A stretch of 64,000 nt of DNA from Candidatus Omnitrophota bacterium. GTDB taxonomy: Bacteria > Omnitrophota > Gorgyraeia > B26-G9. Location of the stretch: positions 31,299 through 95,298 of the forward strand of contig JBDRPX010000035.1 in NCBI GenBank assembly GCA_043826565.1, written 5' to 3'. Every line of letters begins with the position of its first letter. Positions within the stretch are counted from its first letter, which is position 1. This document shows, piece after piece, positions 829 through 40,698 of the stretch. A model generated the notes under the pieces. It did no database searches. It was given only the letters and a program-made list of their open reading frames with translations, and was not told the origin of the DNA. Made by a program: the position numbers and the translations under genes.

Positions 829-922
829 CTTCGGCAACTGACTGCCTTTCCGCCACAATGCTTGGCGGATTAAGGCTCTTGAGTTTTGTGCCCCATCCTT
901 TCGGATAGTTTACCTTTTCGTG
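829..922 (-). ncRNA. Candidate GEMM-like (c-di-GMP-I-type) riboswitch aptamer in the leader of the TpsA-like gene
   Basis: Minus-strand RNA reads CACGAAAAGGUAAACUAUCCGAAAGGAUGGGGCACAAAACUCAAGAGCCUUAAUCCGCCAAGCAUUGUGGCGGAAAGGCAGUCAGUUGCCGAAG. The architecture parallels the Vibrio Vc2 aptamer: GG(Y)AAAC junction, a GAAA-tetraloop hairpin (AUCC-GAAA-GGAU), GGGCAC....AGCC, a second hairpin (CCGCCA-agcauug-UGGCGG), and ...UUGCCGAAG followed by the terminator at 781-819. Confidence 0.4.
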
Positions 923-1099
923 AACTAATATTATATTATAAAAGAACTAATTTCCTTATATATAAAGTATAACATATATATAATTATAATACTAATTATT
1001 GAGTAAAAAAAATAGGCCATAACATATCACTATAGAACAAGTTACGAAAGAAGCTTAAAAAAAGCAATCGTTAATTTAATAACTATACAAAATTGTTAA

Positions 1100-19691: not shown

Positions 19692-20976
19692 GAAACTCCT
19701 CCGGCTCCGGATAACAAACCCTGTTTCTTCCTTCGTGTTTGGCTTTATAAAGCATTTCGTCAGCTTTTTGAATCAACTGATCCATACCCATGGCTTTATC
19801 TTCCGGGAATTTACGCACGACAACACCGACACTAATCGTAAGCTTAATATGTTTATCACCCTGCATTATAAAATCTTCTTTTTCCACGCTCAGACGTAGA
19901 CGTTCGGCAATAGAGAATTGGTCCCCTTCTTTTTCCGCGAGGCCGGGAAGCACAACAACAAATTCTTCGCCGCCATAACGAGCACAAATATCTGTCATAC
20001 GAATACTCTGACTTAAAATTTGCGCGATTTTTTTCAGAACCATATCTCCGTCCTGATGTCCGTAAGTATCATTAATATTCTTAAAATAATCAATATCAAT
20101 CATCAGCAGGCTCATCGGCAATAACTGACGATTACAAAATTCCAACTCTTCATTTATACGTTTTTGTAAAAATGTACGGTTATAAAGCTGAGTTAACCTA
20201 TCCACAGAAGCAAGCCCGCGATGAATCGCGCTTCCTAAAGCAATCGCTCCTTCAGAAACAAGTAGTAGAAAAAATTCTTCTTCATTTTTAATTCTCATGG
20301 CCGCGCTCTCACCGCAAAAAACTACGATAATACCCCAAACTTCATCTTCAAGCACAAGCGGTATCAAAGCAAGAGCGGAAAGCCGGGCCAGATAAGCCGG
20401 CCGTTCTCCTTTTAGAAAATACGATGTCGCCGCGTCATTTCCAAAAGCATCGCCCCGGTCGGTAAAAATTTTTTTCGTTAACATTACCTTCTTGAGCAAT
20501 TCATCAGACTGCTTATATCGCAGAGCCTTTAACATACTGCGGTCAAAATTACAACCCGTCACATAGTCAAATTCATCAGTTCCCGGATCCTGGCAAAGTA
20601 AAAAACATTGGCTATCTCCCGACATATCGGCAGTGATTTTGGAAAACATATTCACGATCAATCTCAATAACTGATCCTTATTTATTGCGGAAGCAAGATC
20701 CTTCCCGAAATTTCTTAACTGAGCAAATTGCTCACGCTGGCGTTTTTCTTTTCTTCTTATTTCCTGAATAATTTCTTCTTTTTCATTTTGAAAAGACGCG
20801 ACAACTGCTTTTAATTCTTCTTCTACTTTAGAAGCATTGATTTTTAAATAAATTGCCGCGGCTAAAAAAGGCCCGCTAACCAGCAGTAAGGCCCCGCCCA
20901 TTAATGGTTTTATAAATAAAAATGCGATTATGAAAATTATGCCTACTGCCAATAATACAATTAAAAATTTCTGCAT
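19681..20976 (-). CDS. Membrane-anchored GGDEF diguanylate cyclase with a GAF-like sensory region
   Basis: GGEEF active-site motif (ARYGGEEFVVVLPG) with ...IDIDYFKNINDTYGHQDGD...; N-terminal TM helices. Confidence 0.85.
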   Translation of the reverse strand: MQKFLIVLLAVGIIFIIAFLFIKPLMGGALLLVSGPFLAAAIYLKINASKVEEELKAVVASFQNEKEEIIQEIRRKEKRQREQFAQLRNFGKDLASAINKDQLLRLIVNMFSKITADMSGDSQCFLLCQDPGTDEFDYVTGCNFDRSMLKALRYKQSDELLKKVMLTKKIFTDRGDAFGNDAATSYFLKGERPAYLARLSALALIPLVLEDEVWGIIVVFCGESAAMRIKNEEEFFLLLVSEGAIALGSAIHRGLASVDRLTQLYNRTFLQKRINEELEFCNRQLLPMSLLMIDIDYFKNINDTYGHQDGDMVLKKIAQILSQSIRMTDICARYGGEEFVVVLPGLAEKEGDQFSIAERLRLSVEKEDFIMQGDKHIKLTISVGVVVRKFPEDKAMGMDQLIQKADEMLYKAKHEGRNRVCYPEPEEFHVQ

Positions 20977-25789: not shown

Positions 25790-26284
25790 TTATTTCGGCA
25801 TATTCTTAGACATATTCTCTTTATACATCTGCTCGATCTTCTTTAATACCTCGGGATCTGTGTCCGGATTTTCCAGTTTTACTGCTTCCATCATATCTTC
25901 GGTTACCTGTTCAGGAGTCACTTCCGGCATGGGTTCGGCAATAGACGAGTATTCCAGATCTCCCATTAACATCTCCGGCCTTAACTCCAGATTTTTTAAC
26001 AGCTGTTCCTCCAGCGGGACAGTCATCTCATTCGGATCGACTTTTTTCCTCTGGGGATCTTTTTTGGGAAAATAATCGGTATTGCGGATAATCCTGGCTC
26101 GGGCGGTAACCGGCATATTATTAGCATGAGCTTTTAGTTTTTCCAGATTTTGACGGCTTTGAATCTTGTCAGTTTTTGCCGCGTCCTTATCCGGCGCGAT
26201 AATATAATTCTTTATCCCAAACATAATTACCAATACCAGCAGTAACATGGTAATTCCCACGGTCATTTTTACACTTTTATCCAT
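25790..26284 (-). CDS. Hypothetical bitopic membrane protein; paralog of 30373-30888
   Basis: N-terminal TM helix. Shares a YF(F)PKK....VDP motif with the protein at 30373-30888. Confidence 0.4.
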   Translation of the reverse strand: MDKSVKMTVGITMLLLVLVIMFGIKNYIIAPDKDAAKTDKIQSRQNLEKLKAHANNMPVTARARIIRNTDYFPKKDPQRKKVDPNEMTVPLEEQLLKNLELRPEMLMGDLEYSSIAEPMPEVTPEQVTEDMMEAVKLENPDTDPEVLKKIEQMYKENMSKNMPK

Positions 26285-26306
26285 AACCTTATCTCTCCTA
26301 AATTAA

Positions 26307-29132
26307 TTAGAAATCCATCTTATAAAAGAAAGCACATTCCGCTTCCGCCCACAAAGATTCGGCCCCGCCGAAAAATACATCTGACGGTGAACGTGAAGCA
26401 CTTTTAAATCTCCCATCATATTCCATAAACTTGGAGGGATAGTAACTTTTTAAATAGTATGATCCGGAGTATGATGTACTCGGCGCTATCCTATCCCGGT
26501 CATCATAATACATTCCTGATTCACTGTAATAATCAACAAACTCATTATTAGCCGCGGTAAATCCATCGCTCTGAATTACAAAATAAGCACCCTTTAAATC
26601 CTGAGTTTTCGAACCCCAATATTCCAAGGCCGCGCCTTTACATCCCGCGCCCCGGGTATCCAGCCAGCGGTTAGAAGCAATTAGACAATTATAATCCTGT
26701 GATTGTGTAACACTATTGGCCATCATGCCGTAGGTAAATGATTCACTTTCCCCGCTATTGTCACCATAAGTCCAGGTAAATGTATCGGTCGCCGCCCCTG
26801 TTGTATCAGGCTTATCAAATTTACTTCTATATTGTGAATCTTTACTGTTTATTCTATTATATAAAGTCCTTTCATAGCTATCTGGAATTTCTGAATAATA
26901 ATCAGTATCATCAACTGCCCCGTCTGTATCCAAACGGTCCCGGTTTACCCAAACACCGTCGTCATTATCCGGATTAGTATCTGTCCAGTATTTAATGACA
27001 ATAGGCTCAGGCAACCAGGGGAAATCGAAAATTCTTTCTGCTTCTTTAACATACATATAGGGATAATCCGGATAATGATACGTTGCCGGAGTTACCTGCG
27101 GGTCATTAAAATCATCCGAAAGCAAAAACACTCTTTTTTTGGAAAGGATCGCGCTGGTGCGCCAATCGCACGGATTCGCTCCTCCGGTATTATAATCTCC
27201 TTTTAAATATATATTCTCTTCACTTAAAACCGTAAACCCGTAATGCTCTTTGGCGCGCGGTAAGACCTCCGCATTAGTAAGCCGCACCGGCACCTGGGAA
27301 TAGACAATTCCGTTTCTCGGATATACCGCGGTTTTCTGCATCTTTTGCAAATCTAATTCTAAAACTGTATTCCATTTATTCGTAAACGCGTTTATGAATT
27401 TGACTTTTTCGGCTACTTTTTCTCCTCCGGCAGCTTCATTAAAACGCTTTACTGCCGCATCCACACTATCTTCGATCACACTTTCCCATTCACTATAATC
27501 ACTGAATTCACCGTCAAAATTATCAGCCAAGCCTATATACGTACCATCTTTTTTCGCTAAAACAGAATAAGTTTTGGAAAACTCCGGGGTATCCAAATAC
27601 TCACCTCCGGTATTCTTGTCACGCAAAACATTATCAAGTTTATTTTTTGATAAAAATTCTTTCCAGGCTTTGGGCTGTTTTTTCGAATTAGTATAATTTA
27701 CCATCGCGTTTCCGTTATTCGAAGACCGGTCTGTGCCGTATCTTCCGTCACTGACAACCTCATCATTAAGCATATTCGCATATCCCGGAGTCCCATTTAC
27801 CGCGCTCCAAAAATCCGGCTTTTTGAACATCTCCCAATAGGTCGCGGCATCCGGATGAGCCGCTTTAAAATCCTCCATGGTAGGATAATCTAGGGGGTTA
27901 AGCATAACAACTTCCTTACTCGCGTCTATTTCCCACCAGCTTTTTTCCGCGCTAACCTGAGCGCCATGATTATCAGTAACATAAAATTCCAGCGGGTTCT
28001 CTCCCACAGCGCTTCCGGTTCCGTATTTACTGCCGAAGTATTTACCCCATTCCCAGGGGCTGTCTAGTTTGGCGGGAATTTCCACCCATTCTCTATCTAC
28101 CAGCTCTCCTTTTTCATCCTGCTGATACGGCTTAACCCAAACATTGTATCTGTTTAAAGGCGTACTATCATTATAAAACTCAGAATCCGGGTCTTTAGCA
28201 TAAGGAGCAATATTATTCTTAGCCTGATCATCACCGACAAAATGAGAATCGAAATCAGTATAAGCATAGGTATACCGAGGCCAATCGGTAACAAGATCTC
28301 TGGTGAAATAATAAGCATAGTCTTTCCAGCACCATTCATCTTTAGAATTATAATACCCAAAAGGCCCGGGAGTAAGCGTACTATCGTCACGGCCGCCCAT
28401 ACTCTGTAAATCATCCAAACGGGAGATCGGAGCTTGGCCGTCTTTTACTCCATCATAATTATCCGCATAATAAGGCGCCGGATATCCTGTGGCCGTATAA
28501 TAAATCGATCCCTCCGCACCCGTACTGATCTCCGATACATTTTCAATACGCATCTGGCTGTCTATATAAATATCACCGTTGGAATGAACACCTCCGCCGT
28601 TCAATTTTGAAGCCCGGCCCAAAGCATCGTATAAATCCAAATTATACGGGCTATAAACAAAAAAATCATAAATTCCCTGGCGGGATAAATAATAGGTTAT
28701 TACTCTGGTCTCCTGTCCGCAGGCTCCTTTAGAAACGATTACGGTTGTATCCGACTGGGTCTGATCCGGATAGGCCTTGACCATAAAATCGCCCTTATCA
28801 TGCACATAAAAACCATCACCGTCAAAGGAACAATCTGATCTGGTTTTTATTTTATAACTTTGATCCCCTGATTCTAAAGGGAGAAGCTTATCTCCGGCAT
28901 CATTCCACTTATGGGTATACCATTGCCAGCCCAGATTATACGATTCATGATACGCGTACGAGACGCCTTTTTCCGCCATATTCAAGGCTTTAGCCGCGTC
29001 ATTACTGCGGGTAACATTTTTGCGTTCCGTAACGATCAAAGTAAAAAAAGCGCTGGCCACCACAATAACAACAAATAAAACCATGTACGTGGAGATAAGA
29101 ATAGTACCTTGCTTTTTTCTTAGTGATATCAT
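26307..29132 (-). CDS. Giant (941 aa) pseudopilin-like protein: GspK/PilX-type N-terminal TM segment lacking Glu5, plus a large Y/W/D/N-rich extracellular domain (possible tip adhesin)
   Basis: N-terminus KKQGTILISTYMVLFVVIVVASAFFTLIVTERK resembles PilX_N/GspK. ~50% identity to the 907-aa paralog across the whole length. Confidence 0.55.
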   Translation of the reverse strand: MISLRKKQGTILISTYMVLFVVIVVASAFFTLIVTERKNVTRSNDAAKALNMAEKGVSYAYHESYNLGWQWYTHKWNDAGDKLLPLESGDQSYKIKTRSDCSFDGDGFYVHDKGDFMVKAYPDQTQSDTTVIVSKGACGQETRVITYYLSRQGIYDFFVYSPYNLDLYDALGRASKLNGGGVHSNGDIYIDSQMRIENVSEISTGAEGSIYYTATGYPAPYYADNYDGVKDGQAPISRLDDLQSMGGRDDSTLTPGPFGYYNSKDEWCWKDYAYYFTRDLVTDWPRYTYAYTDFDSHFVGDDQAKNNIAPYAKDPDSEFYNDSTPLNRYNVWVKPYQQDEKGELVDREWVEIPAKLDSPWEWGKYFGSKYGTGSAVGENPLEFYVTDNHGAQVSAEKSWWEIDASKEVVMLNPLDYPTMEDFKAAHPDAATYWEMFKKPDFWSAVNGTPGYANMLNDEVVSDGRYGTDRSSNNGNAMVNYTNSKKQPKAWKEFLSKNKLDNVLRDKNTGGEYLDTPEFSKTYSVLAKKDGTYIGLADNFDGEFSDYSEWESVIEDSVDAAVKRFNEAAGGEKVAEKVKFINAFTNKWNTVLELDLQKMQKTAVYPRNGIVYSQVPVRLTNAEVLPRAKEHYGFTVLSEENIYLKGDYNTGGANPCDWRTSAILSKKRVFLLSDDFNDPQVTPATYHYPDYPYMYVKEAERIFDFPWLPEPIVIKYWTDTNPDNDDGVWVNRDRLDTDGAVDDTDYYSEIPDSYERTLYNRINSKDSQYRSKFDKPDTTGAATDTFTWTYGDNSGESESFTYGMMANSVTQSQDYNCLIASNRWLDTRGAGCKGAALEYWGSKTQDLKGAYFVIQSDGFTAANNEFVDYYSESGMYYDDRDRIAPSTSYSGSYYLKSYYPSKFMEYDGRFKSASRSPSDVFFGGAESLWAEAECAFFYKMDF

Positions 29133-29157
29133 CGTACGCCTCCTCTATTGATAAAAC

Positions 29158-29847
29158 CTAATTGTTACGTGTAGAAACTCTGTTCGTTAATGTTAATCTT
29201 AACGGGCTCGCCAGATTTCTGCCCCTTACAGTATTTTTTTCCGTACGTATCGTAATGTCAAAAATCTCTACTGCGGAACCGGAAAGCGCTTGCGCGTATT
29301 TCTTGCCGCCGGTATCCCAATATAATCCTTCCACCCAAAAATTCGCTAATCCCCGGGCAATCTCCGTTGAAGAAACCAGTTTATTACTATCGTCCCAGAC
29401 CCGGCGCCACAAACGCCCCTCAGTATCCCCGGCAATAATACAATACTCCACATTATAATCAAGTTTCCCGTCTATCCCCCATTCGATACGGCCAAAATTA
29501 TCAAAAACATTTCCGTCACCGTCCCAGTCCACCGGCACCTGAAAAACAATACTCGGGCCTTGAAAAGTTATCGCTGCCCCCAACTGATCAATTGGCTTAT
29601 CATAAATAAAACAGAGATCTTTTTTGGACATCCGCAATTCTTTTACCATTATGATCATGGCTTTCCGCGCGTTTAGATCAACATCCATTCTCGCGGTATT
29701 ATTAGTAATAAATGTATTCTGCGATATAAGTAATGTAAAAAGCGAACCCACGATCACCGCATATATGCCCATGGATACAAGCATTTCCACCAGGGTATAG
29801 CCGCTGTTTTTTTTTGATCCCTTTAAAATCCTTTTTATTTTTTTCAC
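29158..29847 (-). CDS. Minor pilin / pseudopilin, PilW/GspJ-like
   Basis: Prepilin-type N-terminus SG|YTLVEMLVSMGIYAVIVG with Glu5; 229 aa. Confidence 0.6.
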   Translation of the reverse strand: MKKIKRILKGSKKNSGYTLVEMLVSMGIYAVIVGSLFTLLISQNTFITNNTARMDVDLNARKAMIIMVKELRMSKKDLCFIYDKPIDQLGAAITFQGPSIVFQVPVDWDGDGNVFDNFGRIEWGIDGKLDYNVEYCIIAGDTEGRLWRRVWDDSNKLVSSTEIARGLANFWVEGLYWDTGGKKYAQALSGSAVEIFDITIRTEKNTVRGRNLASPLRLTLTNRVSTRNN

Positions 29848-29850
29848 TTT

Positions 29851-30345
29851 TTAATCCCGGTTATAAATTGCCGCTTCTACGGCGCACGGAGAATCAATAT
29901 CTCCATTACCGTCAAGATCCGCCAAGGTTATCCCTAAAATTCCTTCTTTACCATTATTAATAGCTTCGCCGATAATTCTTTCCCCTTGTTTCCAGCAGAC
30001 AATTACTCTGATTCTTAACATCGCATCTGTTCCGGTTCCGAAACTTTCCAGCAAATCCACTTTTACTAATCCCTGATGCGCGACATTACGAGCCATAAGT
30101 TCATCCACATAAAAAATCTGTCCGTCATAACCTGCTCTAATATCATCAAAGGCTACGTTACGAATTTCATCCATAACCCCTTCCGCCGCGTTCATGCAGG
30201 TAACTGATAATTCCCCGGATTCGGCCAGGCGCGAAAGATACAATGCGGACTGAAAAGTAGTACCCACAGCCACAACCATAATAGCCATGGACATAATAAT
30301 TTCAATAATTGTAAATCCTTTTTCTTTCTTGATCCGCCTGCTCAT
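29851..30345 (-). CDS. Minor pilin / pseudopilin, PilV/GspI-like
   Basis: KG|FTIIEIIMSMAIMVVAVG prepilin N-terminus; 164 aa. Confidence 0.62.
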   Translation of the reverse strand: MSRRIKKEKGFTIIEIIMSMAIMVVAVGTTFQSALYLSRLAESGELSVTCMNAAEGVMDEIRNVAFDDIRAGYDGQIFYVDELMARNVAHQGLVKVDLLESFGTGTDAMLRIRVIVCWKQGERIIGEAINNGKEGILGITLADLDGNGDIDSPCAVEAAIYNRD

Positions 30346-30372
30346 TAATTAAATCCTCTCATCTAACTACAA

Positions 30373-30888
30373 TCACTGCGGTTCATCATCGGAAAACAAA
30401 GTATCCCCCCCATCAAAACTTGGCCCGGGATTAAGCCATTCCGGGATATTTTCCTCCGGGCCCCCCTCTTGCCCAGAAGCAGTTTGTTGTTCAATCAGCT
30501 TTTCGGGCTTTTCTTCTGCGGCCTGATTATTGATCTGATCTCCGGTGATCAGAATCCCCGAATTCTCGATCAATTTTTTATTTCCCCCGGGATCAACACG
30601 TTTAACTTTTTTCTTAGGGAAAAAATATGAATTTTTTCTTACGGCGAGATTTGTGCGGGCTTTTATGCCTAATGGCGCTTTAGAAGGAGAGCCATACTCT
30701 GAGGAATATTTTGCTTTTCTGGACACTTCCTCGCGCAAATTTTTTTTCGTATCTGTTTCAATTATCGAAACCCACCCGTCTTTACTTCTGATTATCTTTA
30801 TGGCATCAACTATAATGATCAACACTAATAAAAGACTACATATCGCTATGGTAATTTTTACCCCTTTTTCCATGTCTTTTTCCCCCAA
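30373..30888 (-). CDS. Hypothetical bitopic membrane protein; paralog of 25790-26284
   Basis: N-terminal TM helix and the shared YFFPKK...VDP motif. Confidence 0.4.
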   Translation of the reverse strand: MGEKDMEKGVKITIAICSLLLVLIIIVDAIKIIRSKDGWVSIIETDTKKNLREEVSRKAKYSSEYGSPSKAPLGIKARTNLAVRKNSYFFPKKKVKRVDPGGNKKLIENSGILITGDQINNQAAEEKPEKLIEQQTASGQEGGPEENIPEWLNPGPSFDGGDTLFSDDEPQ

Positions 30889-30911
30889 TTAATTATTTTT
30901 AAAATACCGCT

Positions 30912-33635
30912 TTAGAAATTCTCCTGATAAAAGAAATCACAGGACTCTTCTTTCCATAAAGACTGCGCCCCTCCGAAAAACACATCCGAAGCCGATCTAG
31001 TCGCGGTTTGAAAACGCTTATCATAATTCAAACTCCAAGGAGGTGATTTCGTACCATAATAAACCGTGCCGCTGACATAACGACCGCGGCTGCTGGTCCC
31101 TAACCCGGACTCATAATCCACAAAATCACCGGTAGGCGCGGTAAATTCGCCATCTTTATCCAGCACAAAATACGCGCCGTTTAAATACTTTTTCATGTCC
31201 TTACTGCCATTATTCCAGTTTTCCAGGTTATCGCCTTTTGTCCCGCGGTAACAAGCGATCAGCGTATTGAAAGTATAGTTATCATAAACCCGATTCGGCA
31301 TCATCCCGTAAGTATAATTTTCTCCGCTGTCCGGCCAGGAAAAAGTCGCCGAAGCTGTTCCGGTGGGATCATGCTTATTAAACATCGCGCGGTACGTTCC
31401 GTCTTTTTTATCAATGAGATCTTTTAACTGCTGTTCATTAGCATCGTCAATATTGGTGTAGCGGTCATAAGTCAGGTAATTCAAATAATCCCGGTAAACC
31501 CACTGCCCCCCGCCTGCATCCGGATTTGCTTCTTCATATATTCCGCTGCCTTCGTCTTTCTTAACATAAAGATAAGGATAATCCCGGTAATGCTCAGTTG
31601 CCGGCACTATTTGAGGATCATTAAAATCATCGGATAAAGTAAAAATACGCTTTTTACCGATAATCGCAGAAGTAACCCATTCATCAGTATTAAAATTTCC
31701 CTGCAAATAGATATTTTCCTCTCCTAAGACCGTAAACCCGTAGGAATCCATTTTTCGCGGCAGTTTTTCCGCATTGGTCAGGCGCAAAGGAACCTGGCTG
31801 TAGACAATACCGTTATCCGGAGTTTTCCCTTCTTTTTGCATCCGTCCTAGATTTATCTCCAAGACAACATTCCATTGATTCGTAAATGTATTGATAAATT
31901 TTACTTTACTGGCCACGGGCCGGGCTGTACCGTCATTAAGTTCTGTCACAGCCTTATCAATACTCTTTTCTAAAACCTTCATCCATTCTTCATAATCATT
32001 ATATTTACCGTCAAAATCATCCGCAAGATTAATAAGCAGTCCGCTGCGTTCGGCCATGCGCGCATAAGTAATATCAAATTCCGGCGGCGCCAGATACTCT
32101 CCTCCGGTATTGCCGTCCCGCACAATCCCGTCTAATTTTGATTTCTTTAAAAAAGAATCCCAAGCATCCGGCTGTTTCTCCGAGTTCGTATGCTTAACCG
32201 GTATCTTTCCTCCGGAAGCCCTCTCCGAACCATAAGTGCCGTCTTTAATATCTTCACTCATATTATCCGGCCAATCCTCTGAACCGGAAAGGTCTTTGCC
32301 TATAGCTGTCCAGTACCGCGGATCTTTAAACATATCCCAATATGATTTAGCCTGCGGATGTTCATCCAGTTTAGCGGGATCAACCATTTCTACTGACACG
32401 GGAGTGTGATGCCCACCTCCGGTTATTTCCCAATAAGTATTCTCCACATTCACTTTATTACCGTCATTATCATAAGTGTAAAAATGCAATGGCTGTTCTC
32501 CGGCACCGCTTCGATATCCATAAGCATCGCCTTTATATTTGCTCCAATCCCAGGTCTGATCCATTTCCGCGGGTATCTGGGTCCATTCTCCGGAAATGAT
32601 ATCGCCGCAATCAGTTTCTCCTAAATATGGTTTGACCCAGGTATTATAACCGTTTAAAGGCTCAGAGCTGTCATTTATAATTGATGAGCTTACCCGGTTA
32701 TCTCTGTTCCCGGGATTAATATTATTATAATCAAGCATATCTCCGTAAAAATACCATTCCGTACTCCGAAAAGCACTGGTCAGCCAAGTACTAGTGCTCC
32801 CGAAATAACTCGCGTTACTCTGATAATTCCAATGCCGGTCACCATATTTATCCCAGTAATAATAACCAAAATCACCGGGATTATCTTTAGCATCATCACG
32901 AAAAATATCATTCGGACGGTCAAGCCGGACCATCGGCGCCATACCGTCTTTTACTCCGTCATAATTATCCGCGTAATATGGAGCCGGGTACTGGTCAGAA
33001 GCCGCGTAATAAATGACCCCGTTTTCTCCGGCACTTAATTCTGAAATATTTTCCAATCTTACCGGATTATCAATCCGGATATTGCCGTTGGTATGGATAC
33101 CTCCGCCGTAAAGCTTTGGGAAATTACCCACCTCATTATCGAGATCCATATCATAAGGACTGTAAAAGAAAAAATCATATATACCCTGGCGGCTGAGCGT
33201 ATAGGTGATCACGCGCCGGTTTTCCCCCTCAATGCCCATGGCGACAATAACTGTCTCATCTTCGTCATCCCGGTTTGGATATGCTTTAACCATGAATTTT
33301 CCGTCATTAGACTGATAATATCCGTTAGCATCAAAAGAGCAATCCGCTCTTAAGAGCTGGCCATAACTGCTGTCTCCGGGAGCCAGCTTAAGGAGTTTAT
33401 CTTCATCATTATTCCATTTATGCGTATACCACTGCCATCCGTAATTTTGTGATTCATAATAAGCATAAGCTACGCCCATTTCCGCATAACCAAGCGCTTT
33501 TTTCCCTCCGGACTCGCGGGCTATACTTTTCTGTTCCGTGATCACAAATGTACACAGAGAGCTGGCCACAACAATAATAATAAACAATACCAGATATGTC
33601 GCAATAAGCATTGTACCTTTATTATTTATCTTCAT
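30912..33635 (-). CDS. Giant (907 aa) GspK/PilX-like pseudopilin paralog
   Basis: N-terminus NKGTMLIATYLVLFIIIVVASSLCTFVITEQK. Many collinear conserved blocks with 26307-29132 (GWQWYTHKWN, APYYADNYDGVKDG, KQPxAWxxFLxKxKLD, YGFTVLxEENIYLxG, SDDFNDPQ, YGMMxN). Confidence 0.55.
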   Translation of the reverse strand: MKINNKGTMLIATYLVLFIIIVVASSLCTFVITEQKSIARESGGKKALGYAEMGVAYAYYESQNYGWQWYTHKWNNDEDKLLKLAPGDSSYGQLLRADCSFDANGYYQSNDGKFMVKAYPNRDDEDETVIVAMGIEGENRRVITYTLSRQGIYDFFFYSPYDMDLDNEVGNFPKLYGGGIHTNGNIRIDNPVRLENISELSAGENGVIYYAASDQYPAPYYADNYDGVKDGMAPMVRLDRPNDIFRDDAKDNPGDFGYYYWDKYGDRHWNYQSNASYFGSTSTWLTSAFRSTEWYFYGDMLDYNNINPGNRDNRVSSSIINDSSEPLNGYNTWVKPYLGETDCGDIISGEWTQIPAEMDQTWDWSKYKGDAYGYRSGAGEQPLHFYTYDNDGNKVNVENTYWEITGGGHHTPVSVEMVDPAKLDEHPQAKSYWDMFKDPRYWTAIGKDLSGSEDWPDNMSEDIKDGTYGSERASGGKIPVKHTNSEKQPDAWDSFLKKSKLDGIVRDGNTGGEYLAPPEFDITYARMAERSGLLINLADDFDGKYNDYEEWMKVLEKSIDKAVTELNDGTARPVASKVKFINTFTNQWNVVLEINLGRMQKEGKTPDNGIVYSQVPLRLTNAEKLPRKMDSYGFTVLGEENIYLQGNFNTDEWVTSAIIGKKRIFTLSDDFNDPQIVPATEHYRDYPYLYVKKDEGSGIYEEANPDAGGGQWVYRDYLNYLTYDRYTNIDDANEQQLKDLIDKKDGTYRAMFNKHDPTGTASATFSWPDSGENYTYGMMPNRVYDNYTFNTLIACYRGTKGDNLENWNNGSKDMKKYLNGAYFVLDKDGEFTAPTGDFVDYESGLGTSSRGRYVSGTVYYGTKSPPWSLNYDKRFQTATRSASDVFFGGAQSLWKEESCDFFYQENF

Positions 33636-33651
33636 AACATACTCTCCTTTT

Positions 33652-34332
33652 CTAATTACGCCAACAAACTCTATTATTTAAAACAACAGTAAGAGGGTTA
33701 TCCAAAGTCCTCCCCTTAATTGTATCTTTTTCCGCGGTAATATTAATTTCAATAAGTTCTATGGTTGTATCCACAACATATTTTTTTAAACCGGTATCAT
33801 AACTGTACCCGATAATTGAAAAATTTGAGATATCATTAGCCACAACTGTTTGCTCGACCAGAGTACTGGTCTCATCCCATACCCGGCGCAAGATCTCTTC
33901 GGCGACCGCGTCCCAGCAATATTCTATCTGCCAGTCCAGGTTATTTTCCGCTCCCCATTCCACACGCCCGAAATTATCCAGGGAATCTCCGTCCGCGTCC
34001 CAATCAACCGGAACCTGGAAAACAATACTTTTAGCATCACTGGCATCAATGAGAACACCGGCTTGATCCAGCGGCCGGTCATAGAGCGTGGTATTTAATC
34101 CCGACCCTACCCTAACCTCTTTAACAATAGAATTCATACCTTTTCCCGCCAGCCGTTTAACATCCCATTTCGCAAAACACTGCTGAGAAATCCGGTTATA
34201 AGATATAAGCATACTAAATAAAGAACCAATCACTACTGAATAAATCCCCATAGATACAATGATCTCAGTCAAAGTAAATCCCTGTTCTTTTTTTCTTTTT
34301 CTACATTTTAATATTTTTTTAATTAGGCTCAC
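33652..34332 (-). CDS. Minor pilin / pseudopilin, PilW/GspJ-like (module 1)
   Basis: QG|FTLTEIIVSMGIYSVVIG; 226 aa. Confidence 0.6.
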   Translation of the reverse strand: MSLIKKILKCRKRKKEQGFTLTEIIVSMGIYSVVIGSLFSMLISYNRISQQCFAKWDVKRLAGKGMNSIVKEVRVGSGLNTTLYDRPLDQAGVLIDASDAKSIVFQVPVDWDADGDSLDNFGRVEWGAENNLDWQIEYCWDAVAEEILRRVWDETSTLVEQTVVANDISNFSIIGYSYDTGLKKYVVDTTIELIEINITAEKDTIKGRTLDNPLTVVLNNRVCWRN

Positions 34333-34354
34333 AAATAACTCCTTTTAGTAAACG

Positions 34355-34819
34355 CTAACGAAAAATAACCGCGGTTTCCATAGCACAGGGCGAATCAATC
34401 AGGCCGTTTAAATTAGTATCTTCTCCGCTGTCTAAAACCCCGTTTAAATTAGCATCTTCTCCGATCATTCTGTTTCCCTGCCGCCAGCAAACAACAATCC
34501 GGAATTTTAAAAGAAAAGAAGGTTCCGTAAGATCTACAGTGATTGTTCCAAGATTAGGCACCCCTTTATTGGTCAGTTCATTTAAGGTGAATTGCGTATT
34601 ATGATAGTTTGGCGAGATATCGTCAAAGGGGACATTTTTTATCTCATCTCTTATCCCTTCAAGAGAATTCATAACCGGAGTAATATTGTCATTAAGTTCA
34701 TTAAGCTGTAGTAAATAACTTGTCGCCTGAAAAGATGAACCGATCGCTACAGACATTATGCCTACTGAAACAAGAATCTCTACTAGAGAAATTCCTTTGT
34801 TATTTTTCAATAACCTCAT
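34355..34819 (-). CDS. Minor pilin / pseudopilin, PilV/GspI-like (module 1)
   Basis: KG|ISLVEILVSVGIMSVAIG; 154 aa. SD GAGGGG immediately follows the leader terminator. Confidence 0.62.
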   Translation of the reverse strand: MRLLKNNKGISLVEILVSVGIMSVAIGSSFQATSYLLQLNELNDNITPVMNSLEGIRDEIKNVPFDDISPNYHNTQFTLNELTNKGVPNLGTITVDLTEPSFLLKFRIVVCWRQGNRMIGEDANLNGVLDSGEDTNLNGLIDSPCAMETAVIFR

Positions 34820-34830
34820 TATTTTACCCC

Positions 34831-34878
34831 TCTAAAAAATAAAATCCGACCTACCGTCCTTTTCCTTCGGTAGCTCGG
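34831..34878 (-). terminator. Intrinsic terminator / riboswitch expression platform 12 nt upstream of the first minor-pilin gene
   Basis: Minus-strand CCGAGCUACCG-(loop)-CGGUAGGUCGG stem (plus 34846-34878), followed by AUUUUAUUUUUU. Confidence 0.65.
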
Positions 34879-34900
34879 CTATCATAGGTTTTTCCTTTTT

Positions 34901-35050
34901 CTTCGGTAACCCGGCTGTCTGAAAAGGTATTACCTTTAGACCCGTGGCTTTGCTCCGGACTGACCAATGTCCAGAATCCCTAGCGCAAATCTCAACCGCT
35001 ATTATGGGATGTCCCCGCCTTTCGACGGGTTTGCCATTATCGGTAAAGGA
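34901..35050 (-). ncRNA. Candidate c-di-GMP-I (GEMM) riboswitch aptamer with an inserted extra hairpin
   Basis: Minus-strand RNA contains GGCAAACC, a CCGUC-GAAA-GGCGG tetraloop hairpin, GGGGAC, an inserted hairpin (AUCCC..UAGCG..CGCUA..GGGAU), GGAGCAAAGCCACGGGUCUAAAGG and CAGCCGGGUUACCGAAG. The last three are near-matches to conserved GEMM-I blocks (GGGACGCAAAGCC, GGGUUACCG). Confidence 0.5.
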
Positions 35051-35100
35051 CACAAATTAATAAAACCTTATAAATTGTGTCTATCTATACTTCTACTATA

Positions 35101-35129
35101 AGTATACCCTATATACCGAACTTTGTCAA
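35101..35129 (-). promoter_or_regulatory. Sigma-70 promoter (TTGACA-17 nt-TATACT) driving the riboswitch leader / minor-pilin module
   Basis: Minus-strand -35 at 35129-35124 and -10 at 35106-35101. Confidence 0.55.
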
Positions 35130-35180
35130 TGTTAGCCCAGGACACCTAACCGCTTTAAAATAAAAAAGTTACGCAACTTT

Positions 35181-36395
35181 TTATCCGATAAGTTCTGTAA
35201 TTTTGAAAATCGGCAGAAACATCGCCACAACAATACCGCCGACAACAATACCCAAAAAAGCAATAATCAGCGGCTCAATCAAGCTGGTAAGGCCGCTTAC
35301 CGCCGCATCAACCTGATCTTCATAAAAATCAGCGATCTTACTTAACATTTTTTCCAGCTCTCCGGATTCCTCCCCAACTGAAATCATTCGGGTCACCATC
35401 GGAGGAAAAGCACGGCTCTTCGCCAAAGGCGTGGAAATACTTTCTCCTTCAAGAATACCAGCACGAGCTTTATCCACAGCGCCTTCAATTACGCTATTTC
35501 CGGCAGTCTTGCCGACAATTTCCAAAGCACCCAAAATAGGCACACCGCTGCGTATTAATGTTGCTAGCGTTCGGGAAAAACGCGCTACCGCCACTTTTCT
35601 TAACAATGGACCGAACACCGGCATATTAAGTTTAAGCTGGTCTATCTTTACCCGGCCTACGGGTGTCTTAATAAATTTGGCAATAACAAAAACAAAACCC
35701 GCCAGACCAATAACAACATATATAAAATAATATCTAAGAGTATCGGAAACATTAATCAGCAGCTGCGTAGGAGCAGGCAATGCGCCGCCTAAAGATTCAA
35801 ATATCTCCTTAAAAGTCGGAATAACTTTCAGCAGTAATACCAGGGTAATACCAATAGCCATACAGGAAACTACACTCGGATAGACCATTGCCGATTTTAC
35901 TTTACGCACGAGTTGAGTATTTTTTTCCAGGTACCCGGCAAGCCTGTCGAGAATTTCATCAAGCATACCGCTGGTTTCTCCGGCTTTGACCATATTCGTA
36001 TATAATAGGGTAAAAACCCGGGGATGTTTCTCCAATGCCGCGGATAGACTTGATCCGGATTCTACATCCTGCCTTACCTTAGTTATAACCGCACGTAAAA
36101 CTGGGCTTTCCATCTGTTCACTAAGAATGTCCAGACTTTGCACTAAAGGAATACCCGCGTTTACCATCGTGGCCAGCTGTCGGGAAAAAATTACCAGCTC
36201 CTCGGATTTGACTGATTTTTTTCCCATGGATTTTGCCTCGGCTGCTGCTTTCCCCGATTTTTCCTCTGTAACAGAAATGATAATCAGATTTTTAACACGC
36301 AGCATGTCCAAGGCTATAGATTTATCTTTAGCCTCAATCACATCCGTAACTGTATTACCTTCCTCATCTTTAGCGGTATACTTAAAAAATGGCAT
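35181..36395 (-). CDS. pilC: Type IV pilus inner-membrane platform protein PilC (GspF family)
   Basis: Two GspF repeats and three TM segments; 404 aa. Confidence 0.9.
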   Translation of the reverse strand: MPFFKYTAKDEEGNTVTDVIEAKDKSIALDMLRVKNLIIISVTEEKSGKAAAEAKSMGKKSVKSEELVIFSRQLATMVNAGIPLVQSLDILSEQMESPVLRAVITKVRQDVESGSSLSAALEKHPRVFTLLYTNMVKAGETSGMLDEILDRLAGYLEKNTQLVRKVKSAMVYPSVVSCMAIGITLVLLLKVIPTFKEIFESLGGALPAPTQLLINVSDTLRYYFIYVVIGLAGFVFVIAKFIKTPVGRVKIDQLKLNMPVFGPLLRKVAVARFSRTLATLIRSGVPILGALEIVGKTAGNSVIEGAVDKARAGILEGESISTPLAKSRAFPPMVTRMISVGEESGELEKMLSKIADFYEDQVDAAVSGLTSLIEPLIIAFLGIVVGGIVVAMFLPIFKITELIG

Positions 36396-36607: not shown

Positions 36608-38332
36608 TTATTCTGAAGAGGTCACCCGTAAAACTTCTTCTAATGTAGTTTTCCCTTCCAAAAAATTATGTATCCCGGCCCCACGTAAAGTAACCATGCC
36701 CACTTCTTTTTTAGCATAGCGTTTAATCTCATCGCTGGAACATCGTTTCATGATCATCTCCCGGATATCATCATTAAGTAATAAAATTTCAATCATCGCA
36801 AAACGCCCGCGATATCCTCCGGTGCATTTATTGCATCCTTTCCCTTTATACACAGTTAATTCTTCGGATTTTTTATCAATCTCCATCCGATCCAGCACTG
36901 ACTGAGGTACCTTATACGCCTCTTTACAATGAGAACAAACTTTACGGGCAAGCCTTTGCGCAACTACAGCCACAACACTCGAAGCAATTAAAAACGGTTC
37001 AATACCCATATCAATAAGTCTGGTTACCGCTCCCGGCGCGTCATTAGTATGGAGAGTACTTAAAAGCATTGCTCCGGTTAATGCCGCTTTAATCGCGATA
37101 TCACCTGTTTCAAAGTCTCTGATTTCTCCCACCATTAGAACATCCGGATTCTGCCTTAAAATCGATCTTAGCCCGGAGGAAAAAGTAAGTCCGATATCCG
37201 GTTTAACCTGTACCTGGGTAATTCCTTCAACCTGATATTCAACCGGATCTTCGACGGTAATAATATTTTTTTCCGGAGTATTAAGTTTATTTAAAACAGA
37301 ATACAAAGTCGTTGATTTCCCGCTTCCGGTAGGCCCGGTAACCAGGATCATGCCATACGGCCGGGTAATCGCGTAGTTAAAATCTTCCAGTGCTTTTGGC
37401 AGGAATCCTAAGGCTTCCAATCCAATGCTTAAATTGGATTTATCCAAAGCCCGCATAACAACTTTTTCCCCAAAACTGATCGGCAGGACAGAAACACGAA
37501 AATCAACTTCTTTTTGCGCGAATCTGACTTTAAACCTGCCGTCCTGAGGAATATGCCGCTGCGTAATATCCAGATTTGACATTATTTTTAAGCGTGCGGC
37601 AATAGCGTTCTGTATTTTTTTCGGCAAAATCGCGGCTTCGTGCAATGCTCCGTCAATTCTATATCTAACTCTAATATTATGTTCATACGGTTCAATATGT
37701 ATATCCGAAGCTTCTTTGATCAGGGATTCGGCGATTAAAGCATCGATCATCTTAACAATCGGAGCTTCTTCACTGGAACGGATTACATCACCGATATCAA
37801 CCTGGTCGTGCTGCTGAACCACTTCGATATCGTCTTCAGTCATATTCTTAACTAAATCATCAATTGACTGATTAAGCTTTTTCTGCGCCTCCACCCCTCC
37901 CGGATGATATAATCTATCTATGGTCGAAGTAACCGCACTCACGGTACAGACAGCCGGAGCCACATCATAGCCGGTAAGCGCTTTTATATCATCTATGGCT
38001 AATACATTTGATGGGTCACTCATGGCAATGCTCAGCATACTTCCAATCCTGGAGATAGCTAAGAGCTGGTAATGACGGGCTACATGTTCCGGGATTATCT
38101 TAACCGCTTTTTCCGCAGCATTAAACTTAGTAAGGTCAATTAGCGGCACATGCAGATATTTACAAAAACAAATCGCGATATTTTCTTCGGTTGTGAATTT
38201 ATTTTCTACTAATATAGTCGCTAACTGTCCGCCTTTCTTTTGCTGAATATTCAAGGCTTCATTGAGTGTTTTTTCGTCAATAAGATTGTGCTCTATTAGT
38301 AGTTCATTAAGTCTTTTTTTTACTCTACGCAT
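36608..38332 (-). CDS. pilB: Type IV pilus assembly ATPase PilB/GspE with an N-terminal MshEN (GspE-N) domain and tetracysteine motif
   Basis: N-terminal RLNELLIEHNLIDEKTLNEALNIQ (MshEN), Walker A GPTGSGKSTT, and CSHC...CNKC zinc site; 574 aa. Confidence 0.9.
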   Translation of the reverse strand: MRRVKKRLNELLIEHNLIDEKTLNEALNIQQKKGGQLATILVENKFTTEENIAICFCKYLHVPLIDLTKFNAAEKAVKIIPEHVARHYQLLAISRIGSMLSIAMSDPSNVLAIDDIKALTGYDVAPAVCTVSAVTSTIDRLYHPGGVEAQKKLNQSIDDLVKNMTEDDIEVVQQHDQVDIGDVIRSSEEAPIVKMIDALIAESLIKEASDIHIEPYEHNIRVRYRIDGALHEAAILPKKIQNAIAARLKIMSNLDITQRHIPQDGRFKVRFAQKEVDFRVSVLPISFGEKVVMRALDKSNLSIGLEALGFLPKALEDFNYAITRPYGMILVTGPTGSGKSTTLYSVLNKLNTPEKNIITVEDPVEYQVEGITQVQVKPDIGLTFSSGLRSILRQNPDVLMVGEIRDFETGDIAIKAALTGAMLLSTLHTNDAPGAVTRLIDMGIEPFLIASSVVAVVAQRLARKVCSHCKEAYKVPQSVLDRMEIDKKSEELTVYKGKGCNKCTGGYRGRFAMIEILLLNDDIREMIMKRCSSDEIKRYAKKEVGMVTLRGAGIHNFLEGKTTLEEVLRVTSSE

Positions 38333-38343
38333 TCATTATTCCT

Positions 38344-40059
38344 TTAATCATCCGCAGTTAAACGGGTGATCTCTTCTAAACTTGTAAGCCCTTTCAGTGC
38401 TTTAATAACACCGTTTTCCCGTAAAGTGGTCATTCCTTCCTCTCGCGCTTTTTTCTTGATGATCCCTTCCTGGGCTTTTTGCATAACCAAGTCCCGGATA
38501 TCCGGAGTAAAAATCAAAACCTCACATAAACCGAGTCTTCCCCGATAACCGGTATTACTACATTTAGCACATCCTTTAGGTTTGAATAACTCTTTAGCAT
38601 CCTCGTTAATAAAAAATCTTTTTCTTATCTCCGGGGTTATCTCATATGCTTCTTTACAATTATCACAAAGTTTTCGGATCAATCTCTGGGCACATACCAA
38701 TAAGCACGAGGAAGTGATCAGAAACGGTTCAATACCCATATTTACCATTCTGGTTACCGCTCCGGAAGCTTCCGTCGTATGTAATGTGCTTAAAACTAAA
38801 TGCCCGGTAAGAGCAGCTTTAATCGCGATATCCAGAGTTTCTGTATCACGAATTTCACCGACCATAATGATATCCGGGTCCTGACGTAAAAATGATCGTA
38901 AAGCACCGCTAAAAGTAAGCCCGATCTCCGGGTTAACACTAACCTGATTAATTCCCGGCAATTGGTATTCAACCGGATCCTCTGCGGTAACCAGATTTAG
39001 TTCCGGATTATCCACATATTTTAAAACCGAATACAAAGTAGTCGATTTTCCGCTTCCGGTCGGCCCGACAACAAGGATCATTCCATGCGGTTCCTGCGCA
39101 AGGGTCTTAACTCTTTGTATTGTTTCAACCTCAAAACCTAAAGCGTCCAAATCAAGAATTACCGTAGTCTTATCTAATATACGCAAAGCAATTTTCTCTC
39201 CGTGGGTGCACGGCATAATCGAAACACGAAAATCAATTTCCCGGTCACCGATTTTAATTTTAAAACGGCCGTCTTGCGGTAAACGATGTTCCGCTATATT
39301 TAAAGTGGACATGACTTTAATCCGGGAAATAATCGCGTCCTGCATATGTACCGGCGGTGCCGGAAATTCCTGTAGAATTCCATCGAGGCGATAACGTATC
39401 CGCAGGCGTTTTTCCTGCGGTTCAATTAAAACATCGCTCGCTTTGTGTTTAATCGCTTCCGCAAGAAGCATATTCGTAACTTTTACAACCGGAGTATCTT
39501 CAACTTGAGCAAGAAGTTGTTTTTCACTAAGCTGCCTATCTTCAGAAGCACCTTCATCCTGAAATATTTGGATATCCATGTCCTTTACATCATCAATAAT
39601 TGCTCTCATCTGATCATCCGATGACCCGCTATAATGTTTTTCAATTGCTTCCTTAAGCTCCTTTTCAGCCGCAATAACAACTTTCAGCTGATAATTGGTA
39701 AGCACTTTAAGTTCATCAATAGCCAGGACATTAAGCGGGTCGACCATGGCGACTGTTAAAACTTTTCCAATTTTAGAAATCGCAATCGCCAGATATTTTT
39801 CCGCCAGCTGCCGGGGAATGATCTGAACCACATCCTGATTTATTTTGAACTTAGCAAGGTTGATCGGGGGGATATTCAAACTTTGACTTAATACAATTAC
39901 CAAGTCACGCTGACTAATATAACCCATTGTCGTCAGGACTTCACTTAAACGCCGTCCCGTTTCTTTTTGCAAAGCAATAGCTTCCTCAAGCTGCTCCTTT
40001 GTTAAGAAATTAGAGCGGGTTAAAACCTCCAGCATTTTGTCTTTAATACCTTGAACCAT
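38344..40059 (-). CDS. Second PilB/GspE-family ATPase paralog with an N-terminal MshEN domain
   Basis: KMLEVLTRSNFLTKEQLEEAIALQ, GPTGSGKSTT, and CDNC...CAKC; 571 aa. Confidence 0.88.
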   Translation of the reverse strand: MVQGIKDKMLEVLTRSNFLTKEQLEEAIALQKETGRRLSEVLTTMGYISQRDLVIVLSQSLNIPPINLAKFKINQDVVQIIPRQLAEKYLAIAISKIGKVLTVAMVDPLNVLAIDELKVLTNYQLKVVIAAEKELKEAIEKHYSGSSDDQMRAIIDDVKDMDIQIFQDEGASEDRQLSEKQLLAQVEDTPVVKVTNMLLAEAIKHKASDVLIEPQEKRLRIRYRLDGILQEFPAPPVHMQDAIISRIKVMSTLNIAEHRLPQDGRFKIKIGDREIDFRVSIMPCTHGEKIALRILDKTTVILDLDALGFEVETIQRVKTLAQEPHGMILVVGPTGSGKSTTLYSVLKYVDNPELNLVTAEDPVEYQLPGINQVSVNPEIGLTFSGALRSFLRQDPDIIMVGEIRDTETLDIAIKAALTGHLVLSTLHTTEASGAVTRMVNMGIEPFLITSSCLLVCAQRLIRKLCDNCKEAYEITPEIRKRFFINEDAKELFKPKGCAKCSNTGYRGRLGLCEVLIFTPDIRDLVMQKAQEGIIKKKAREEGMTTLRENGVIKALKGLTSLEEITRLTADD

Positions 40060-40077: not shown

Positions 40078-40698
40078 CTATTTCGGCTCATAATACTGGG
40101 CGATAGCATTATTAATATCCGAAAAGGTAGAAATAAACGTCTCAACATCAAGTCCGGTAATCTGTTTTATTTCTTCTTTCGCAGCAGAGTTAAGAGGATC
40201 AGCCATGGCAACAGTAAGAATGTTGCCAATTTTATCGATCGGGATAAGATTGTATTTCTGAGCAATATCTTTTGAAATAATTTTTACTAATTCGGTTTCA
40301 ATTTCATAATTTTCCAACTGTAAATAAGGAAATCCGTATTGAGTCACCATAGTACTCACAAGGTCTTCTTCCGAAAGGTAACCCATTTCGATAATTAGTT
40401 GAAATAAAGATCCTCCCTTTTTAGTTTGCATCTCCAACGCTTTATCTAACTGCTCCTGGGTAATAATGCCGATATCCAACAGAATGTTTTCCAGTTTCTG
40501 CGCTGTATGCGTCTGCTCATAAATACTTTCCTCTATCTGCTCCGAAGTAACATACTTAAGTTTGACTAAAATCTGACCGACTAAACCACCTTCCTGAAGC
40601 TGAACTTCCAGAGCTTTTTCCAATTGCTCCTGGGTGATCAGATTCTTCTCGATCAAAAGTTGTCCGATTTGTTTCTTTTTATTTTTTTTCAATTCCAA
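40078..40698 (-). CDS. Stand-alone protein made of two MshEN (GspE N-terminal, c-di-GMP-binding type) domains with no ATPase domain
   Basis: Two copies of the MshEN consensus: QIGQLLIEKNLITQEQLEKALEVQ and KLENILLDIGIITQEQLDKALEMQ; 206 aa. Confidence 0.65.
   Translation of the reverse strand: MELKKNKKKQIGQLLIEKNLITQEQLEKALEVQLQEGGLVGQILVKLKYVTSEQIEESIYEQTHTAQKLENILLDIGIITQEQLDKALEMQTKKGGSLFQLIIEMGYLSEEDLVSTMVTQYGFPYLQLENYEIETELVKIISKDIAQKYNLIPIDKIGNILTVAMADPLNSAAKEEIKQITGLDVETFISTFSDINNAIAQYYEPK

Follow-up and report, generated by a model that had tools for sequence, protein, structure and literature searches.

We describe here the leader between pilC and a minor-pilin gene in a 64-kb window of a contig from a Candidatus Omnitrophota metagenome-assembled genome (MAG); "the window" means this whole stretch, and the leader with all its parts lies on the minus strand. 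From its sequence we conclude with good confidence that the leader is a class-I cyclic di-GMP (c-di-GMP) riboswitch (GEMM-I, Rfam family RF01051) of the transcription-terminating kind, with a promoter of its own, and that it would control whether RNA polymerase enters a type IV pilus minor-pilin operon. The family and the type of target are known, and on that ground the case is an ordinary one. New, as far as we could establish, are a recurrent and apparently undescribed insertion of two hairpins into the aptamer, beside nucleotide C44, and a duplication of the aptamer's 3' third, the second copy of which feeds the terminator. Text searches, which reached few subscription papers and no Rfam seed alignments, found neither a published inserted or expanded GEMM-I aptamer nor a riboswitch from Omnitrophota, and an earlier description is therefore possible; a description of such a duplicated 3' third was likewise not found in the literature.

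Identity of the leader

The pilC gene (35181-36395, T2SSF) and the 154-aa pilin-signature gene that follows it (34355-34819) are separated by 361 nt, which hold, in order, a promoter, a leader of ~275 nt, an intrinsic terminator and a Shine-Dalgarno (SD) sequence. A first, sequence-only reading of this DNA had proposed a GEMM-I aptamer here from near-matches to conserved blocks, and the covariance-model search bore this out: an Rfam cmscan of the whole window matched RF01051 at 34902-35045 (E 1.5e-5), and the 44.9 bits of this match exceed the gathering score of 35. The match spans the full model (1-87 of 87) and has 76 nt in a place for which the model allows 19. When the leader (34780-35150, both strands) was scanned permissively, at E<=10, matches came only from models of clan CL00126, and none from c-di-GMP-II (RF01786), another class that the reading had put forward for comparison. 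Because the full-model match is over threshold and the permissive scan found only members of the same clan, we regard the riboswitch as real and above chance. The 281-nt leader also has a minimum-free-energy (MFE) fold far below that of shuffled sequences (z = -3.65).

The complete proximal aptamer, including P1a, occupies 34893-35050, and its closing helix P1a pairs UCCUUU (35050-35045) with AAAGGA (34898-34893). The founding paper on GEMM describes a P1 in which an internal loop of 3 nt lies between stems of 2 and 6 bp (PMC1950547); the window has the GC/GC 2-bp stem, the 5' AAA, the 6-bp stem, the GAAA loop and the 3' GAC, with the internal loop split on its 3' side by 57 nt between C44 and G45. 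The upper stem of P1b and its GAAA tetraloop (CCCGUC-GAAA-GGCGGG, 35014-35029) are followed by G-A-C at 35013-35011, and four of the six pairs covary across the 27 variant sequences that are introduced below. The AAA linker between P1 and P2 (GC-AAA-GCC, 34953-34946) is invariant in all 27. The P2 hairpin of this aptamer (34908-34949) is made of strand a, AGCCACGGGUC (34949-34939), and strand b, GACAGCCGGGUU (34919-34908).

In its P1a/P1b/P2 layout, the GAAA loop on a 6-bp P1b stem, the AAA linker and the nucleotides G20, A47, C92, C44 and G83, the leader is like Vc2 of Vibrio cholerae, the c-di-GMP-I prototype. Vc2 numbering (PMC11705072), carried over by alignment to the Rfam consensus, puts G20 at 35035, C44 at 35011, A47 at 34951, G83 at 34915 and C92 at 34906, so that the ligand-contact nucleotides G20, A47 and C92 and the long-range pair C44-G83 are all retained in the window; across the 27 variants, these positions are conserved in 26-27 sequences. 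Both C44-G83 and the docking of the tetraloop into its receptor matter for the folding and ligand binding of Vc2 (PMC11705072). A GAAA tetraloop usually goes together with a receptor in P2; here, strand a supplies CUAA, its proximal partner UUUUCA is non-canonical, and it is a distal copy that brings the canonical UAUG. The position in the 5' untranslated region of pilus genes and the intrinsic terminator behind the aptamer are also shared with GEMM-I, for which both associations were made in the founding paper (PMC1950547). The window differs from that family in having two hairpins between C44 and G45, a proximal P2 without a canonical receptor and a 3' third that is duplicated.

Two neighbouring families were compared. 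The best E-value of the permissive scan belonged to c-di-GMP-I-GGC (RF03167), with 39.8 bits, below its gathering score of 59. The window shares with it a simple P2 that has no inner receptor hairpin. At the equivalent of A47, however, the RF03167 model has G (GCGAA), and in the window, as in all relatives, this base is A (GCAAAG). The GEMM-Ib or 3'3'-cyclic GMP-AMP (cGAMP) riboswitches of Geobacter have the same fold and are likewise frequently located upstream of pilus genes; the signature of their cGAMP selectivity is A at position 20. Because position 20 in the window (35035) is G and not the A of GEMM-Ib, nothing in the window points to cGAMP specificity.

The sigma-70-type promoter proposed in the sequence-only reading is present at 35101-35129, with TTGACA at -35 (35129-35124), a 17-nt spacer and TATACT at -10 (35106-35101). 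It matches the consensus at 11 of 12 positions and was the top site in a 2-kb scan; transcription would start near 35094. The form TTGACA-N17-TATA(C/A)T was conserved behind pilC in each of the 15 relatives that we looked at, those that have no riboswitch among them. At the other end of the leader, a hairpin and U-run at 34834-34878 form a predicted intrinsic terminator, with arms CCGAGCUACCG (34878-34868) and CGGUAGGUCGG (34856-34846), an 11-nt loop and the U-tract AUUUUAUUUUUU (34845-34834). The stem has ten pairs and a G.G mismatch and is present in the MFE fold; a pattern scan for terminators missed it solely because the 11-nt loop is longer than the scan maximum of 8. The U-run ends 14 nt before the ATG, with the SD (34832-34827) directly after it, and the sequence-only reading, which had a terminator in front of the pilin gene, was thus correct about its coordinates but not about its spacing.

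The same riboswitch was found after pilC in other Omnitrophota MAGs, in keeping with the expectation that orthologous leaders would share a conserved structure. Among GTDB species genomes, the closest pilC relatives were Candidatus Omnitrophota MAGs with 76-82% identity. Nine clade members (the window and loci L001-L004 and L006-L009) have in common a promoter, an aptamer, a terminator and a pilin gene after pilC, whereas the more distant pilC loci L020-L039 had no GEMM after pilC. Two further arrangements were seen in more distant Omnitrophota: L013, L016, L017, L020 and L021 keep the promoter after pilC and have a short hairpin leader, without a riboswitch, into a major-pilin-like gene, and in L015 and L019 a compact GEMM-I and its terminator are followed, ahead of the pilin gene, by a second consensus promoter.

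The two-hairpin insertion beside C44

The extra sequence sits exactly between C44 and G45 (GAC/GCAAAG, the slash marking the site), where the compact aptamers of L001 and L009 read ...GGGAC/GCAAAGCC... Inserted hairpin A (34976-35010; AUCCC...GGGAU with an inner AGCG/CGCU stem) starts right after C44, and inserted hairpin B (34954-34975; UCUGGAC-AUUGGUCA-GUCCGGA) is flush both with hairpin A and with G45 (34953). The sequence-only reading had noticed that something was inserted, which stands; it had seen a single hairpin, where we found two. By this anatomy, the 57-nt insertion makes a four-way junction of the P1b internal loop and leaves the residues of the ligand pocket untouched. It has no further copy elsewhere in the window and is thus not a repeat, and none of 200 shuffles gave a fold as good as that of hairpins A and B.

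Six of the Omnitrophota relatives have two hairpins at the same site, with stem sequences unrelated to one another. The riboswitches of the close relatives L001 and L009, which share the platform and occupy the corresponding place in the genome, precisely lack the module, and these compact aptamers pass the RF03167 model. Relatives that are equally close have either the compact or the expanded form, and their aptamers are otherwise nearly identical; judged by this comparison, the two-hairpin module is an optional accessory domain.

Beyond the clade, we scanned metagenome sequences for a GAAA hairpin followed, after 35-95 nt, by GCAAAGC. The more than 120 matches were mostly ordinary tandem aptamers, with ~10 chance matches, and they were filtered by requiring CAAAG directly after the hairpin and by folding. 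A two-hairpin fold was present in 29 of 40 non-canonical matches, and about 20 further distinct metagenome sequences, unrelated to the clade, had the same two-hairpin architecture (20 loci, within L081-L194); L148 and L188 passed the fold filter and were dropped when they were not recovered by the covariance model described below. For nearly all of the two-hairpin sequences, none of 200 shuffles gave a flush two-hairpin fold of equal energy.

The scan also brought up a recurrent composite, at metagenome loci such as L098:1095-1275 (minus strand), L088, L093, L094, L107, L113, L163, L167, L170, L179 and L193. It consists of the 5' half of a GEMM-I (GAAA loop), a second complete aptamer (GCGA-type loop) and then ...CCUAAUGGUGGCCGAGCYGCUAGG, which resembles a further P2 3' strand. 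One aptamer may be nested in the P2 loop of another, or the arrangement may be a simple tandem; the fold of single sequences is ambiguous.

Multiple alignment with MAFFT was poor inside the insertion, and we therefore aligned the variants with a covariance model, R1, built from a four-sequence seed in which the two helices were written by hand and used to align the remaining sequences. R1 gave the window 72.5 bits and separated the variants from canonical aptamers. In the resulting alignment (A4, 27 distinct sequences), both sides change at all nine pairs of hairpin A, with 96.7% of cells paired, and at all six pairs of hairpin B, with 93.7% paired, percentages that are inflated because A4 was fitted to the model. 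None of 500 shuffles reached the covariation score of the hairpins, controls in which the helices were slid had at most 45% of cells paired, and RNAalifold on the same alignment yielded both inserted helices too. The sequence-only reading had thought that the inserted element could mark a variant class, and this is borne out: the two-hairpin module is recurrent, and it covaries in 27 distinct sequences.

In A4, C44 and A47 are kept in 27 of 27 sequences and G20 in 26, whereas the loops and lengths of the inserted hairpins are not conserved, the two together measuring 41-91 nt. The helices show some preference of bases (G-U-C-C...G-G-A-C in hairpin A, C-C...G-G in hairpin B). The sole A20 among the 27 variants is that of the expanded aptamer at L006:4339-4503 (Omnitrophota MAG JAZDHZ010000009.1), which reads AUAGCAAACC and not AUGGCAAACC and lies below the Rfam gathering score.

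It is conceivable that the insertion changes what the riboswitch senses, as a second site for a protein or another ligand or through a specificity shifted away from c-di-GMP, which would make it a functionally new riboswitch class. The place of the insertion, which adjoins C44, is two bases away from A47 and so lies in the very centre of the binding junction, speaks for this, as do the base preferences of the hairpins and the fact that L006, which bears the insertion, has the signature of cGAMP-selective GEMM-Ib. We nevertheless think it improbable: the ligand-contact positions are kept in 26-27 of the 27 variants, neither loops nor lengths of the hairpins are conserved, and L001 and L009 lack the insertion precisely while keeping position and platform, so that the module is dispensable for the regulatory role. 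The genes downstream of the variants (minor pilins, Flp pilin, RlpA-like proteins, GH1 enzymes and large secreted proteins) are also the usual c-di-GMP regulon. Most likely, the inserted hairpins would serve as a structural scaffold at the junction beside C44 and not as a second sensor.

The RF01051 gathering score was reached by 11 of the 20 metagenome variants (35.4-47 bits) and missed by nine, for which R1 gave 50-74 bits. The Rfam model handles the insertion as a penalised gap, and Rfam 15 has no family dedicated to two-hairpin variants.

The duplicated 3' third and the terminator

Each of the nine clade members carries two copies of the aptamer's last ~32 nt, which comprise the P2 3' strand, ACCGAA and the P1a 3' strand. 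The proximal copy, which includes strand b, is CCUUUUCAGACAGCCGGGUUACCGAAGAAAAAGGA (34927-34893). The distal copy, c, is CCUAUGAUAGCCGAGCUACCGAAGGAAAAGGA (34857-34888), with 15/18 identity to the proximal copy (p~0). Copy c makes up the 5' arm and loop of the terminator, carries the canonical receptor half UAUG and can replace b in both P2 and P1a; the 3' arm of the terminator is strand d. We found the duplication only in the Omnitrophota pilC clade and in L174; it is independent of the two-hairpin module, and the idea that it is a general trait of the two-hairpin variant was rejected for this reason.

Because the 3' end of the aptamer is duplicated and its distal copy is the terminator's 5' arm, the leader has the makings of a strand-exchange expression platform, in which strand a would pair with either b or c. 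With a:b formed, c would be free to pair with d as the terminator; with a:c formed, the 5' arm of the terminator would be sequestered, together with the first bases of its 3' arm through an alternative P1a. As anatomy, there is good support for this exchange, in which a:b would allow the terminator and a:c would block it. Four pairings are compatible with the sequences of the nine clade members: 98.9% of cells are paired in a:b (P2) and 97.5% in the terminator c:d, which has one compensatory change of C-G to U-A. The corresponding figures are 96.3% for b:d, without covariation, and 91.5% for a:c, in which two pairs change on both sides, one of them an A-U/U-A swap at the receptor-closing pair, where a:b has U.U.

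Conservation of the terminator region could also have a coding origin. The sequence-only reading had seen no convincing open reading frame (ORF) in the leader, and we agree, since its one candidate, a 73-aa GTG ORF (34832-35053), is open in the window only. In each of the eight relatives it is closed; their longest sense ORFs have 8-51 aa in varying frames, and the similarity is patchy and split over frames, as for a conserved RNA. As a gene, this ORF was rejected. A mini-ORF overlapping the terminator, AUGAUAGCCGAGCUACCGAAG... (M-I-A-E-L-P-K...), has its start and first seven codons in all nine clade members, with AAGGA upstream, as a leader peptide might. Its conserved AUG, however, is the UAUG half of the tetraloop receptor, the codons after it coincide with the P2 3' strand consensus, and the terminator's 3' arm compensates for the one change that looks synonymous, CUA to UUA; this candidate was rejected as well. 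We therefore give very little credence to a protein-coding leader or to leader-peptide attenuation, whether through the 73-aa ORF or through a short SD-preceded one.

In which direction would the switch work? Our tentative preference is for a kinetic OFF switch. C-di-GMP would lock the aptamer that is made first, a:b, the terminator c:d would form and transcription would stop; without ligand, strand a would swap to c, giving a longer P1a and the canonical receptor, and polymerase would read through. The proximal copy keeps G83, C92 and the invariant UACCGAA. The positions at which b and c show fixed differences optimise a:b, which has no mismatch, and c:d, which is Watson-Crick, while a:c has a C.A mismatch in seven of the nine clade members. 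By nearest-neighbour energies, a:b plus the terminator beats a:c by 10-16 kcal/mol in seven of nine.

Nearly as likely is the reverse direction, in which the same riboswitch would be ON. Here the ligand-bound aptamer would be completed by c (a:c with the alternative P1a), c-di-GMP would prevent termination and induce the minor pilins, and b would be a decoy that holds strand a when there is no ligand, so that the terminator forms without leak. This possibility draws on the receptor region of c, which is nearer to the family consensus (UAUG-GA(U/C)AGCC), whereas b has no canonical receptor; on the compensatory A-U to U-A change at the receptor-closing pair, which backs a:c where the inner helix of a:b has U.U; and on P1a, which with the c-tail is equally or more stable in six of nine members (-11.7 against -6.3 kcal/mol with the b-tail in the window). 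It has parallels in L125, a metagenome relative of plain ON design whose P2 3' strand is the direct pairing partner of the terminator's 3' arm, and in L174, a relative of L125, in which the distal copy completes a long P2. An overlap of P2 with the terminator is the common arrangement in GEMM (Weinberg 2007, PMC1950547). As in such classical ON platforms, copy c serves at once as a P2 3' strand and as the 5' arm of the terminator; the window differs from them in that an extra proximal P2 3' strand comes first and a complete aptamer is made before the terminator-embedded copy. This difference is where the ON direction meets its difficulty: the proximal aptamer, made first and with G83, C92 and UACCGAA in place, should be captured by the ligand, leaving c for the terminator, and both the pattern of b/c differences and the lower stability of a:c point the same way.

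Several points weigh against the OFF direction that we tentatively prefer. High c-di-GMP usually promotes pili, and this, with the MshEN ATPases encoded in the locus, favours ON over OFF. Both alternative aptamers keep the ligand-contact nucleotides, constrained folding did not separate ON from OFF and the direction is not derivable from sequence. Since a:b plus the terminator is 10-16 kcal/mol the more stable, thermodynamics alone would give a terminator with or without ligand. The covariation of a:c reflects few evolutionary events in nine close relatives, with a score reached by 30 of 500 shuffles, and paired percentages taken from the model-fitted A4 are inflated. A reading that joins the two novelties, with an optional four-way-junction module by C44-G83 and a 5' core that could be completed by either of two 3' ends, one of which permits the terminator, strikes us as somewhat unlikely.

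Gene context and implications

Upstream of the aptamer, the leader has a 5' hairpin (GACACAA...UUGUGUC, 35049-35081) that appears in both the MFE and the centroid fold and lies directly upstream of the P1a 5' strand, with a 2-nt overlap. A hairpin of different sequence is found at this position in L002, L004 and L008, also overlapping the P1a 5' strand by ~2 nt, and it may act as a stabiliser of the 5' end or as a further competitor for P1a.

Downstream, the SD GAGGGG and the first minor-pilin gene together cover 34355-34832, with the ATG at 34819. The 154-aa product has the N-terminal methylation (pilin) motif, and same-strand genes follow it closely spaced. The sequence-only reading had called this product PilV-like; a generic minor-pilin signature is there, consisting of the N-methylation motif only, and the PilV-like label would go beyond it. 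The operon behind the riboswitch (25790-34819, minus strand) contains two four-gene modules that are paralogous and combine genes for pilin-motif products with one for a protein of ~900 aa (154/226/907/171 aa in the first, 164/229/941/164 aa in the second); the two large proteins (907 and 941 aa) share 49% identity from end to end and have no match to any Pfam family.

The locus also encodes, as had been noted from the sequence, one GGDEF protein, a diguanylate cyclase (19681-20976), and three MshEN-domain proteins (36608-38332, 38344-40059 and 40078-40698), of which two are full T2SSE ATPases and the third is a stand-alone protein of 206 aa. This last protein (40078-40698, minus strand) has an MshEN (c-di-GMP-binding) domain, no ATPase and an N-terminal region with weak, sub-threshold Pfam matches; its gene directly follows a gene for a PilT-like ATPase and precedes the two MshEN-T2SSE ATPase genes.

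A second, compact and canonical c-di-GMP-I riboswitch lies at 830-924 (minus strand; 61.5 bits), with a hairpin and U-run behind it at ~775-815. It precedes a gene that is cut by the end of the window (1-747, minus strand) and encodes a two-partner secretion (TPS) exoprotein domain (E 4e-23). With this gene behind the second riboswitch, c-di-GMP riboswitches stand over both a pilus module and an adhesin-like exoprotein in one genome.

These results indicate that homology searches under-detect the decorated members of a well-studied riboswitch class, and because nine of the 20 variants fall below the Rfam threshold, c-di-GMP regulons in uncultured phyla such as Omnitrophota would be under-counted. 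The site of the insertion is unexpected, between C44, which forms the essential pair with G83, and the G45-C46-A47 segment of the pocket. As a natural variant, it suggests that the pocket tolerates a four-way junction and would offer a ready site for engineering or structural study. The duplicated 3' third is a natural and testable case of competing aptamer completions. If c-di-GMP kinetically traps the conformer that is made first, the leader would represent an expression platform of a new type, with three strands exchanging between an aptamer and an antiterminator that resembles one; another possibility is a case of regulatory logic inverted through partial duplication of an aptamer, as a comparison of L125 (plain ON) with L174 and the window might suggest. 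For the organism, the arrangement would place c-di-GMP control directly upstream of a minor-pilin module, for the tip or the priming of the pilus, in a phylum that is without genetics.

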